From positions 7,694 through 71,693 of the forward strand of contig JBPOFE010000001.1 of the NCBI GenBank assembly GCA_051252035.1: a stretch of DNA of 64,000 nucleotides. Direction: 5' to 3'. Below are positions 2,520 through 44,321 of the stretch, in pieces. The stretch comes from Sulfitobacter sp. Its GTDB lineage: Bacteria > Pseudomonadota > Alphaproteobacteria > Rhodobacterales > Rhodobacteraceae. The position numbers were made by a program, and so were the translations under genes. Position 1 is the stretch's first letter. The number at the start of each line of letters is the position of its first letter. The notes under the pieces were generated by a model that was not told the DNA's origin, ran no database searches, and saw only the letters and a program-made list of their open reading frames with translations.

Positions 2520-3278
2520 ATGAAGGTATTGGTACCTGTCAAACGCGTGATCGACTACAACGTGAAAGTACGCGTCAAAGCGGACGGATCGGGTGTTGAT
2601 CTTGCTAACGTAAAAATGTCGATGAACCCGTTTGACGAAATTTCCGTCGAACAGGCGATCCGCCTGAAAGAAGCGGGGCAAGCCGACGAGATTGTCGTGG
2701 TTTCCATCGGCGTCAAGCAAAGCCAGGAAACCCTGCGCACCGCTTTGGCGATGGGCGCGGACCGTGCCATTCTGGTTGTCGCAACTGATGATGTACACAA
2801 CGACATTGAGCCACTGGCGGTTGCCAAAATCCTCAAAGCGATTGTGGATGAGGAAAAGCCCGGTCTGGTTTTAACGGGCAAGCAAGCGATCGACAACGAC
2901 ATGAACGCCACGGGCCAAATGTTGTCTGCCCTGCTGGGTTGGTCACAGGCCAGTTTTGCGTCAGAGCTTGCCATTGAAGGCGATCATGCGGTTGTCACAC
3001 GCGAAGTGGACGGCGGCTTGCAGACCATCAAAGTGACGATGCCAACCGTTGTCACCGTCGACTTGCGCCTCAATGAGCCGCGCTATGCGTCATTGCCAAA
3101 CATCATGAAGGCCAAGAAAAAGCCATTGGATGAAAAGACACCCGAAGATTACGGTGTGGACGCCTCCAACCGCCTTGAAATCGTTAAAACGGTCGAACCT
3201 GAAGCACGTGCCGCAGGCATCAAGGTGGCATCAGTTGACGAATTGGTCGAGAAACTCAAAGAAGCGGGGGCTGTGTAA
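2520..3278 (+). CDS. etfB: Electron transfer flavoprotein beta subunit
   Basis: [45 protein letters not shown]. Confidence 0.98.
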
Positions 3279-4204
3279 TGGCTGTTCTACTCCTTGCAGA
3301 AGTAACCGATGGCGAATTGGCGATGGACGCCACAGCCAAGGCTGTGACTGCTGCCAAGCAATTGGGCGATGTGACGGCACTCTGCTGTGGTGGCTCCGCC
3401 GCCGCCGCTGGTGACGCCGCTGCCAAGATTGATGGCGTGTCCAAAGTTCTGGTCGCCGAAGATGAATCATTGGGCCACCGTCTTGCGGAATCTACTGCCG
3501 CGCTGATCGTATCGCTGGCTGGCGACTATGATCACATCGTTGCACCCGCCACGACAGACGCGAAAAACGTGATGCCGCGCGTTGCAGCGCTGCTAGATGT
3601 GCAGATCATCTCCGACGCGTCTGGCGTTGTGGATGCCGACACATTCGAACGCCCGATCTATGCGGGTAACGCCGTGCAAACGGTCAAATCCGGCGATGCG
3701 AAAAAGGTCATCACCTTCCGCACATCGACATTCGATGCGGCCGGTGACGGCGGTTCAGCCTCGGTTGAAACCATCGGTGCCGTGGCGAACCCCGGCCTGT
3801 CCGAATGGGTCGAAGACAAAGTCGCCGAATCTGACCGTCCAGAACTCACATCCGCTGGCGTCGTGGTTTCAGGCGGTCGTGGTGTCGGGTCCGAGGATGA
3901 TTTTGCTCTGATTGAAAAACTTGCTGACAAACTGGGTGCCGCCGTTGGTGCATCCCGTGCTGCCGTTGACAGTGGCTATGCCCCGAACGACTGGCAAGTT
4001 GGTCAGACGGGCAAAGTCGTGGCACCTGATCTCTATGTCGCGGTCGGCATTTCGGGCGCTATTCAGCACCTTGCCGGTATGAAGGACAGCAAGATCATCG
4101 TCGCCATCAACAAAGACGAAGAAGCACCGATTTTCCAAGTTGCCGACTTTGGCTTGGTTGCAGATTTGTTCGAGGCTGTACCCGCGCTGATCGAGAAGCT
4201 ATAA
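3278..4204 (+). CDS. etfA: Electron transfer flavoprotein alpha subunit
   Basis: [35 protein letters not shown]; TAATG coupling to etfB. Confidence 0.98.
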
Positions 4205-43264: not shown

Positions 43265-43660
43265 ATGGCCTTGAAAGTATCAGCCGCCCAGATGGTTGCG
43301 GACGCCCGCGCCCGGATCGAGGAAATCGAAACAGCCGTCGGAATTGCAATGGTGGATGACCCATCTATTCAGATCGTCGACCTGCGCGACCCACGTGAAC
43401 GCGCACGCAGTGGCTTTATTCCCGGCAGTTTCCATTGTCCGCGCGGTATGCTGGAATTCTGGGTTGACCCCGACAGTCCCTATTTCAAAGATGTGTTTGC
43501 GCAGGATAAGAGATTTGTCTTTCACTGCGCCTCCGGCTGGCGCTCCGCCATTTCGGTGGCCACATTGCAAGACATGGGCTTTGACGCGGCACATTTGAAA
43601 GACGGGTTTGGCGGCTGGGCAAAGGCCGGTGGGCCAATCGAAAAGGATGCGCCGAGGTAA
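43265..43660 (+). CDS. Rhodanese-like domain protein
   Basis: VDLRDPRE, GSFHCPRG, HCASGWRS, LKDGFGGW. Confidence 0.92.
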   Translation: MALKVSAAQMVADARARIEEIETAVGIAMVDDPSIQIVDLRDPRERARSGFIPGSFHCPRGMLEFWVDPDSPYFKDVFAQDKRFVFHCASGWRSAISVATLQDMGFDAAHLKDGFGGWAKAGGPIEKDAPR

Positions 43661-43672
43661 GGTTTCGTTAAC
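43657..43672 (+). promoter_or_regulatory. CtrA-like box (1 mismatch)
   Basis: GTAA-GGTTTCG-TTAAC, about 20 bp upstream of the sRNA promoter. Confidence 0.4.
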
Positions 43673-43690
43673 CATACCGTACGGTGAATA

Positions 43691-43719
43691 ATTGCAATTT
43701 GGCGCGATTTGAGCTATAT
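43691..43719 (+). promoter_or_regulatory. Sigma70-type promoter of candidate sRNA
   Basis: ATTGCA-N17-CTATAT versus the rhizobial RpoD consensus CTTGAC-N17-CTATAT. Confidence 0.6.
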
Positions 43720-43725
43720 CTAAGG

Positions 43726-43806
43726 CATCGGAAGGGAAAATCTTTCAATAGATCATCTCTAAGAACGACGCCGCAGAGGTCTAGCTCTGCGGGGTCACTC
43801 TTTTTC
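43726..43806 (+). ncRNA. Candidate ~80-nt sRNA (putative antitoxin RNA)
   Basis: Bounded by a promoter and a terminator; no plausible + strand CDS; 5' end approximate. Confidence 0.5.
43767..43805. terminator. Hairpin shared by convergent sRNA and peptide transcripts
   Basis: GAC-G-CCGCAGAG-gtctag-CTCTGCGG-G-GTC then ACTCTTTTT on +; followed by GTTCTT on -. Confidence 0.75.
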
Positions 43807-43812
43807 AGGGAA

Positions 43813-43896
43813 TTACACCCAGAGCCGGATGATCGTCACAACCAGCGTTGCCGCCGCGATGATGACCATCCAATTTCGGAAGGTTGAATCATCCAA
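43813..43896 (-). CDS. 27-aa single-TM peptide MDDSTFRNWMVIIAAATLVVTIIRLWV (type I toxin-like)
   Basis: GAGGAGGTG SD at 43911-43903, 6 nt before TTG at 43896; TAA at 43815-43813; hydrophobic core. Confidence 0.7.
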   Translation of the reverse strand: MDDSTFRNWMVIIAAATLVVTIIRLWV

Positions 43897-43973
43897 TTCA
43901 ATCACCTCCTCACACCGCGAAGCGTCGCGGGTGAAGTCAAATTAGATTTGAAATGTTCGGATATCGTTAATCA

Positions 43974-44321
43974 TCAGGGACGCACCGGATATCGACCACC
44001 ATCCTCGGTCAACAACACCAAACGCCCATGGCTATGCACAAATATGTCACATCGCTGACGTCCGTTGGTAAATGTGACACAGACCTCGCCGTCGGGTTTG
44101 ATATCAAAGTGCCCAAATGCCGTCGCCCCACTTTCATAGGAATAGCTATAAGCGCCGCCGACCGAGTATCTTGACTGACCACCCTCATAAAACCTCAGCA
44201 CACGACCCGCCGTCAGCGCGACAACCTGCTCTCGTGCCAACACAGTATCCCCCTCAAGCCGTGCGAAACCATCCGCAAAAACGCAGGTCGGCAGCAGGAT
44301 TAAAGCCAATAAAAGTCGCAT
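43974..44321 (-). CDS. Hypothetical secreted protein
   Basis: Signal peptide MRLLLALILLPTCVFA; directly downstream of smc. Confidence 0.75.
   Translation of the reverse strand: MRLLLALILLPTCVFADGFARLEGDTVLAREQVVALTAGRVLRFYEGGQSRYSVGGAYSYSYESGATAFGHFDIKPDGEVCVTFTNGRQRCDIFVHSHGRLVLLTEDGGRYPVRP

Follow-up and report, generated by a model that had tools for sequence, protein, structure and literature searches.

Two diverged copies of a direct repeat in the window (the whole 64,000-nt stretch of Sulfitobacter sp. DNA analysed here) are probably the interaction sites of an RNA-regulated peptide module that is built like a type I toxin-antitoxin locus. The repeat search returned a 22-nt ungapped direct repeat with 77% identity between 43728–43749 and 43876–43897 (family D1), and its copies lie 148 bp apart on one DNA molecule. 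Copy 1 would form the pairing region of a predicted small RNA (sRNA), and copy 2, read on the minus strand, covers the translation start region of a small peptide gene.

43728–43760, plus strand: repeat copy 1, the predicted sRNA pairing region, with blocks at 43728–43735, 43739–43742, 43744–43749 and 43751–43760 (family D1; RNAduplex pair list)
43876–43909, minus strand: repeat copy 2, the predicted mRNA target, comprising the 3′ part of the Shine-Dalgarno (SD) sequence, GTG, the TTG start and codons 2–7 (family D1; RNAduplex)

That the sRNA pairs with the peptide mRNA, as the complementarity suggests, and represses it, as we infer, is likely to much the same degree as the overall assignment; the chances that the peptide would be toxic when unrepressed seem about even. 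Transcription would proceed from the predicted promoters to the predicted RNA ends described below.

The first-pass annotation had drawn attention to an 8-mer, TCGGAAGG, at 43728–43735 and 43876–43883, followed in both places by AATC and TTCAAT. The letters and coordinates of the 8-mer are right, and it is the core of the 22-nt repeat; on reading the sequence, AATC was found at 43739–43742 and 43887–43890, and TTCAAT at 43744–43749 and 43897–43902. On the minus strand, the second unit reads CCTTCCGA and corresponds to peptide codons 5–7, (A)CC TTC CGA, counting from the TTG at 43896–43894, as had been proposed. The complementary blocks listed in that annotation hold, and the true stretch is longer, running in four blocks from sRNA 43728–43760 against mRNA 43909–43876. 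The register of TTCAAT is ambiguous, either 43892–43897 with one G-U pair or 43897–43902 with perfect pairing, since CATCCAATT occurs twice, at 43867 and 43890 (family D3).

Both copies lie in a 313-bp spacer between the stop codon of a rhodanese gene (43660) and that of a 115-aa ORF (43974), and this spacer holds two convergent units with the following features.

43692–43719, plus strand: predicted sRNA promoter, with a −35-like TTGCAA (43692–43697), a 16-nt spacer and a −10-like CTATAT (43714–43719), from sequence reading
43727–43805, plus strand: predicted sRNA of ~79 nt, with a free 5′ pairing region, an A-rich spacer, a terminator hairpin and a U-run
43769–43794, both strands: shared bidirectional intrinsic terminator, with 10-nt arms (9 pairs), a 6-nt loop and T-rich tails (inverted repeat I1)
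43813–43896, minus strand: peptide gene, MDDSTFRNWMVIIAAATLVVTIIRLWV, 27 aa from the TTG at 43896 (ORF listing)
43905–43911, minus strand: Shine-Dalgarno GAGGAGG, part of an extended GGAGGTGAT element (sequence reading)
43915–43930, minus strand: leader hairpin CCGCGA-cgcu-UCGCGG, directly 5′ of the SD (RNAalifold)
43941–43970, minus strand: putative peptide promoter, with a −35-like TTAACG (43970–43965), an 18-nt spacer and a −10-like TCTAAT (43946–43941), from sequence reading

Both boxes of the predicted sRNA promoter align with conserved columns (cTTTaC ... ctatAT) in the 29 homologous loci, and the CTATAT type of −10 box is alphaproteobacterial. A generic sigma-70 consensus scan called no promoter at the locus for either unit. 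Repeat copy 1 starts 8–9 nt downstream of the −10-like box, and the predicted sRNA start was placed near 43727, 7–8 nt past this box, where the complementarity begins; the predicted 3′ end, at ~43805, was placed from the T-run at 43799–43805. The first 10 nt of the sRNA are predicted to be mostly unpaired, with a mean of 0.81 in homologues and 0.51 in the window. Rfam cmscan of 43400–44200, with E-values up to 10, returned two chance-level matches only (a DnaX frameshift element and a snoRNA) and no antitoxin RNA family. For the convergent unit, boxes like TTAAC(G/C/A)-N17-18-(C/T)CT(A/C)AA/T are seen in a subset of homologues, and the putative peptide promoter is a weaker call than the predicted sRNA promoter.

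The terminator scan called a terminator-like site on the minus strand. Moreover, the GC-rich stem covaries over the 29 loci (CCCCGCAGAG, CCCGGCAGAG, CCCGCCAGAG, CCGGGTAGAG and others), and the tails, scored by fixed geometry in 14-nt windows on each strand, contain on average 6.3 and 5.8 T per 14 nt on the two strands. Because both units end at this common stem-loop, the predicted RNAs overlap only at the terminator, and the repeat copies lie outside the overlap; because one bidirectional terminator ends both RNAs, their 3′ ends are perfectly complementary. The peptide ORF is also outside the overlap, with its stop codon at 43813 and the predicted sRNA end at ~43805. In the leader hairpin, five of the six pairs show compensatory double changes (RNAalifold, 28 loci), and the hairpin ends 3–5 nt upstream of the SD. 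An extension of its stem into the first half of the SD (CUUCAC/GUGAGG) is possible in the window and in some homologues and is absent from the consensus structure.

Two further sequence elements were considered and rejected. The conserved TGGCAAGG between the boxes of the sRNA promoter is wrongly spaced for a sigma-54 element. An 11-nt repeat at the module borders, TCGTTAACCAT / TCGTTAATCAT (family D2), was rejected as a target-site duplication because ATCAT of the right copy is the end of the neighbouring ORF and is also present in the empty site of the congener G029, and because the left TTAACC is often the coding end of a lytic transglycosylase (ltg) gene in other genera. As a separate observation, TTAACCAT (43668–43675) resembles a CtrA half-site and lies ~20 bp upstream of the −35 box of the sRNA promoter. 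TTAAC at 43965–43970 belongs to the −35-like box of the peptide promoter as well and is conserved there in most homologues, and the left TTAAC copy is the ltg coding end (Leu-Asn-Arg/Gln) in many genera. A full TTAA-N7-TTAAC CtrA box was not seen at the locus.

Translation from the TTG gives a peptide of 27 aa; if the in-frame GTG at 43905 were used instead, the peptide would have 30 aa. The peptide family is almost always 29 aa long, with the consensus M-x-E-x-x-Y/F-R-K-W-M-V-x-I-A-A-A-x-L-x-V-A-I-I-R-L-W-I-G-x. In the unpaired transmembrane part, column entropies of 1.00/0.57/1.29 at codon positions 1/2/3 show coding periodicity. Pfam, NCBIfam and PHROG gave no consistent family for the peptide or its 27 homologues, with only scattered single weak Pfam matches, and exact look-ups in a 15-billion-protein collection found two of ten peptide sequences, both nameless; annotation of the peptide is almost always lacking.

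The start codon itself is ambiguous (43894–43905 in the window; loci L009–L062). The codon eight positions upstream of the conserved Trp is CTG in 19 of the 29 loci, and loci with CTG have an in-frame GTG or ATG inside or just past the SD-like GGAGGTGATG; the same codon is TTG or GTG in all five loci that lack an upstream in-frame start. The SD is unusually long, (A)AGGAGGTGAT, and up to 11 of its nucleotides are complementary to the 16S rRNA 3′ end; GGAGGTGA at the SD is nearly invariant among homologues. In the predicted fold of the window mRNA (43876–43911, minus strand), GGAGG of the SD pairs with CCUUCC, which belongs to the 8-mer region targeted by the sRNA, around a UUGAAUU/GAUUCAA stem. 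The target block may act as an internal anti-SD in addition to being the sRNA target. CCUUCC is missing at the corresponding place in the congeners inspected.

Based on RNAduplex, the window sRNA (nt 2–34, 43728–43760) and mRNA 43909–43876 form a predicted duplex of −38 kcal/mol with 32 pairs, the blocks being reported as 8, 4, 6 and 10 bp. All but one of the five bases in GGAGG lie within the duplex, and so do both candidate starts (GTG at 43905, TTG at 43896) and codons 2–7. When the segments are cut as for all loci, the energy is −36.1 kcal/mol; 1000 dinucleotide shuffles of the sRNA part averaged −19.6 ± 3.8, and none of the 1000 reached the native value.

To this single locus we added 28 further module copies, giving 29 loci including the window. 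All homologues have an sRNA 5′ portion that looks like the antisense of the start region of the peptide in the same locus. The letters of the repeat differ between species, and the two copies change together: S. aestuariivivens has TTCGATAGTT ... ATCATCATCAC twice, once per copy, and the same holds for TCGAAACGAA in genome G020 and for TCGATAAT ... CAGTGA(T/A)ATCACC in genome G009. In a 29 × 29 matrix of duplex energies, the cognate mean was −37.1 kcal/mol versus −22.3 ± 5.1 for non-cognate pairs, and 22 of the 29 sRNAs found their best target of 29 in their own locus. Similarly, re-alignment scores averaged 39.0 for cognate versus 22.3 for non-cognate pairs, with the cognate best in 22 of 28 cases. 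The pairing inferred in the first-pass annotation, between the sRNA 5′ end and CCUUCCGA plus AUUGAA around the start codon and away from the 3′ overlap, is strongly supported by this preference of each sRNA for its own mRNA.

The co-variation can be followed along the target site, whose columns are paired in 14–28 of 28 loci. Each sRNA was mapped pairwise, locus by locus, onto the gap-free alignment of the targets; at least two Watson-Crick pair types were then seen in 27 target columns, and double changes in 169 cells. These column statistics rest on match-favouring local alignments and kin-related loci, their permutation figures are not probabilities, and the non-cognate and paralogue comparisons are the sturdier controls. 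Up to four different base pairs occur per column while the copies within a locus stay matched. In particular, the CTG/TTG/GTG variation of the candidate start codon is mirrored in the sRNA (column 32: G:C 17, A:U 5, C:G 3). Among transition mismatches, G-U outnumbers A-C by 35 to 15 (p = 0.007, symmetric scoring scheme), and this excess points to selection on the RNA duplex and is expected neither from selection on DNA identity nor from gene conversion. The first-pass annotation had staked the pairing on conservation of the repeat in homologous loci; the letters turned out not to be conserved, whereas the complementarity is. Conserved complementarity in the face of changing letters is stronger evidence than conservation of the repeat itself.

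The sole nearly invariant paired block is UCACC of the sRNA against GGUGA of the mRNA, directly 3′ of GGAGG. AUCACC is a sequence found near the 3′ end of 16S rRNA, and by its letters the predicted sRNA is a mimic of the anti-SD. In most homologues, the duplex takes in only the GGUGA part of the SD and not the GGAGG core. Three loci pair poorly, namely L056 (−17.6 kcal/mol), L060 (−20.6 kcal/mol) and L058 (in which the cognate ranks 7th). L060, from genome G150, is apparently decayed: its SD is mutated (AGCGCTGAG), its peptide frame runs for 83 codons, and at that energy the cognate ranks only 12th. Peptide and pairing seem to decay jointly in this locus.

Paralogous copies provide a comparison within single genomes. 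In locus L077 (a MAG contig, Pseudomonadota bacterium), two tandem ~300-bp modules follow ltg (~3200–3800 on the reverse complement). The two peptides differ in the first codons, and everything from FRKWM onward is identical. Of the five differences between the two sRNAs, four are matched by a change in the target of the same copy. The cognate duplexes have energies of −38.1 and −39.1 kcal/mol, and the crossed duplexes −23.7 and −26.7. Similarly, for the two unlinked copies in genome G231, the cognate duplexes reach −39.4 and −47.4 kcal/mol and the crossed ones −19.1 and −32.0.

We propose a mechanism in which convergent promoters would produce a ~175-nt mRNA, encoding a 27–29-aa single-helix membrane peptide, and a ~79-nt sRNA, both ending at the common terminator. 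The first ~34 nt of the sRNA would constitute a diverged direct-repeat copy of the antisense of the peptide translation start region, and because of this the sRNA 5′ end would be able to pair with the mRNA. First contact might be made through the complementary terminator hairpins, as in par, and the free sRNA 5′ end would then bind the mRNA from the 3′ half of the SD, across both candidate start codons, through codon 7. Within the duplex, the start codon and the 3′ half of the extended SD would be out of reach, which would block 30S loading; at ~30 bp, the duplex would also be a probable substrate for RNase III. Moreover, the AUCACC core of the sRNA would vie with the ribosome for the extended SD, GGAGGUGAU; this competition would be direct because the invariant core has the same letters as the 16S rRNA 3′ end.

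To place the module, we surveyed its distribution and genomic setting. It is single-copy in its own genome, and blastn located it in 4 of 36 congeners, S. aestuariivivens among them. A covariance model spanning the terminator-to-SD stretch was applied with strict filters, which makes its counts lower bounds and its E-values rough; it gave full-length matches in at least 24 of 400 sampled genera of the family Rhodobacteraceae and modules in at least 5 of 41 Sulfitobacter species. Applied with these filters to 301 genomes sampled across the class, the model matched only two, both Rhodobacteraceae (one of them the genome of the window), and none of the ~298 from other alphaproteobacterial families. 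The homologous modules come from four other Sulfitobacter species and 23 other genera of the family, and the holders include Wenxinia, Pseudooceanicola, Maritimibacter, Celeribacter, Limimaricola, Gemmobacter, Xinfangfangia and Sinisalibacter. Isolates that carry it are, for instance, S. aestuariivivens TSTF-M16, Sulfitobacter sp. EhC04 and DFL-14, and Celeribacter persicus DSM 100434.

The module lies between ltg and smc in 19 of the 29 loci and adjoins at least one of these genes in 25. A second housekeeping site, fabI-trmB, is represented by L043 and L062, which lie downstream of an enoyl-ACP reductase (fabI-like) gene; L062 is the second copy in genome G231 and lies upstream of a Methyltransf_4 (trmB-like) gene. 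Searches of plasmid and phage collections with blastn and tblastn yielded no module copy. The ~310-bp module (43661–43973 in the window) is a presence/absence polymorphism, with 36 of the 41 Sulfitobacter species having no module, and the empty sites in the congeners G029 and G021 are clean, with ~10–20 bp between the same flanking genes.

L095, 3084–3103: empty site
L097, about 1077–1090: empty site

The 115-aa ORF beside the module (43974–44321, minus strand) has a signal-peptide-like N-terminus and no Pfam or NCBIfam match, and only some relatives have it between the module and smc.

These data bear on the role of the peptide. The fixed site beside smc and the lack of mobile copies fit a regulated housekeeping small protein; what agrees with a toxin-antitoxin module is that copies were lost repeatedly, were duplicated and diverged in specificity. 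Addiction modules less typically occur as one copy among conserved housekeeping genes, with no match in the plasmid and phage collections. A serious alternative, which we hold to be possible and on balance doubtful, accepts the same RNA pairing and takes the peptide to be a conserved small membrane protein, whose function in the cell might relate to the lytic transglycosylase or smc genes next to it, and the sRNA to be its dedicated translational regulator rather than an antitoxin. It draws on the conserved position (19 of 29 loci between ltg and smc, 25 of 29 beside at least one of them, and fabI-trmB as a second site), on the negative blastn and tblastn searches of plasmids and phages, and on the strong conservation of the peptide at fixed length with its YRKWM...IRLWIG motifs; however, the module is lost from 36 of 41 congeners with clean empty sites, it has been duplicated both in tandem and at unlinked sites, with specificities that drift apart, and its architecture is that of type I toxin-antitoxin loci. 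A broader proposal, which we rate only slightly higher and still short of even, would see an ancient, fixed smc-side module whose par/Fst design arose independently of Firmicutes, whose code drifts and splits into orthogonal pairs after duplication, and whose peptide might target the envelope or chromosome segregation instead of serving selfish addiction.

The plus-strand RNA could be the 3′ UTR or read-through end of the upstream rhodanese or ltg gene rather than an independent sRNA, since the module always lies directly downstream of a plus-strand gene and the generic scan passed no promoter. We consider this unlikely, because −35/−10-like boxes at a fixed distance from the complementarity are conserved in the 29 loci whatever the upstream gene (ltg, rhodanese or fabI), and because the second unit of the L077 tandem has no upstream gene. 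It is very unlikely that the repeat is a DNA-level relic, a duplication kept alike by gene conversion and free of RNA-RNA function. Conversion is possible in principle between direct repeats 148 bp apart on one molecule, but copies that are only ~75–85% identical, match in short blocks and differ by an internal stretch consistently deleted from the sRNA copy make a poor conversion substrate; the mismatches are biased to G-U-compatible transitions (35 vs 15), the complementarity persists over more than 24 genera despite the turnover of letters, and the similarity is bounded by the predicted sRNA 5′ end and the SD. Two alike sites near two promoters might also suggest operators for one DNA-binding regulator, yet such sites would be expected to share a consensus across species, whereas up to four base pairs occur per column, and the module encodes no regulator; this explanation is highly improbable. 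Finally, the caution in the first-pass annotation that the 8-mer alone might be a chance match was not borne out. By our own estimate, an 8-mer common to two ~40-nt stretches has a chance of ~1–2%, but none of the 1000 shuffles reached the duplex energy and the repeat recurs with other, co-varying letters in 28 other loci, so that coincidence is scarcely credible. The preferred reading remains that of two RNA interaction sites in a module of toxin-antitoxin design.

The locus has what defines type I systems generically, a small hydrophobic peptide gene and an RNA from the same locus that is complementary to its mRNA. Its closest likeness is to par (Fst/RNAII) of Enterococcus faecalis pAD1 and its chromosomal relatives. 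In both, the genes are convergent, here with conserved promoter-like boxes that are predicted; a bidirectional factor-independent terminator is shared, here the stem at 43769–43794 found in the 29 loci; direct repeats read oppositely provide complementarity over the SD and start codon of the toxin or peptide gene; and the toxin or peptide mRNA has a 5′ stem-loop. In par this stem-loop sequesters the SD; here the 6-bp leader hairpin ends 3–5 nt before the SD and may reach into it, in the window and some homologues, by the extension that the consensus structure lacks. The interaction sites of par are poorly conserved between paralogues, so that the antitoxins are specific (PMC7472228), and this has its counterpart here: the antitoxins of pAD1 par and its chromosomal paralogue give no cross-protection because DRa and DRb differ (PMC7472228), and the cognate and crossed energies in L077 and G231 follow the same pattern. 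In contrast, par has two named repeats, whereas one long interrupted repeat is found here; and the par host is a Firmicute, whereas the module belongs to a Gram-negative alphaproteobacterium and sits at a fixed chromosomal site beside smc, with no copy found on plasmids. The YUNR U-turn of the par terminator loop is not conserved here, occurring in 3 of 29 mRNA-sense loops at about chance level (the window, with CUAG, is one of the three); the motif is also absent from some par homologues (PMC7472228). Furthermore, peptides of the Fst/Ldr superfamily have a transmembrane helix, a conserved Trp, a charged C-terminal tail and a P/D/S/TxxxG motif, whereas the peptide described here has neither a charged tail nor a PXXXG motif and ends 3–4 residues past the helix (IRLWIGx). 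Because the architecture matches and the peptide family and YUNR loop do not, the locus is par-like but lies outside the Fst/Ldr family; most simply, it represents a new family whose design is convergent with or very distantly related to par.

T1TAdb (PMC8594479) describes type I systems that combine a 3′ overlap with pairing elsewhere for Gram-positive bacteria only, naming Fst/RNAII and SprA1/SprA1as; SprA1/SprA1AS (PepA1) of Staphylococcus aureus also has a peptide unrelated to the one here. TxpA/RatA and BsrG/SR4 of Bacillus subtilis share with the module convergent genes, 3′-overlapping RNAs and a small hydrophobic peptide, but they interact within the overlap, over the 3′ part of the ORF (PMC8594479), whereas the ORF is outside the overlap here. 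TisB/IstR-1, ShoB/OhsC and Zor/Orz of enterobacteria are Gram-negative type I systems with a separate sRNA and short partial complementarity to the 5′ region of the toxin mRNA, but they have no shared terminator and their peptide families differ from the one here. Full-text literature searches combining type I toxins with alphaproteobacterial or Rhodobacteraceae names, with poor coverage of subscription journals, returned no report of such a system. Judged by the sequence comparisons, Rhodobacteraceae probably have here a genuine RNA switch of toxin-antitoxin-like kind, on the par/Fst plan, that had not been described before. If this is true, the par design would extend to Gram-negative bacteria that abound in the sea, where its peptide is an unrelated one. 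Rhodobacteraceae genomes would gain a predicted sRNA and a conserved membrane peptide of 29 aa that lacks annotation, and the ~30 loci, with paralogues differing almost only in the interaction zone, would form an unusually clean natural data set on the evolution of RNA-RNA specificity.
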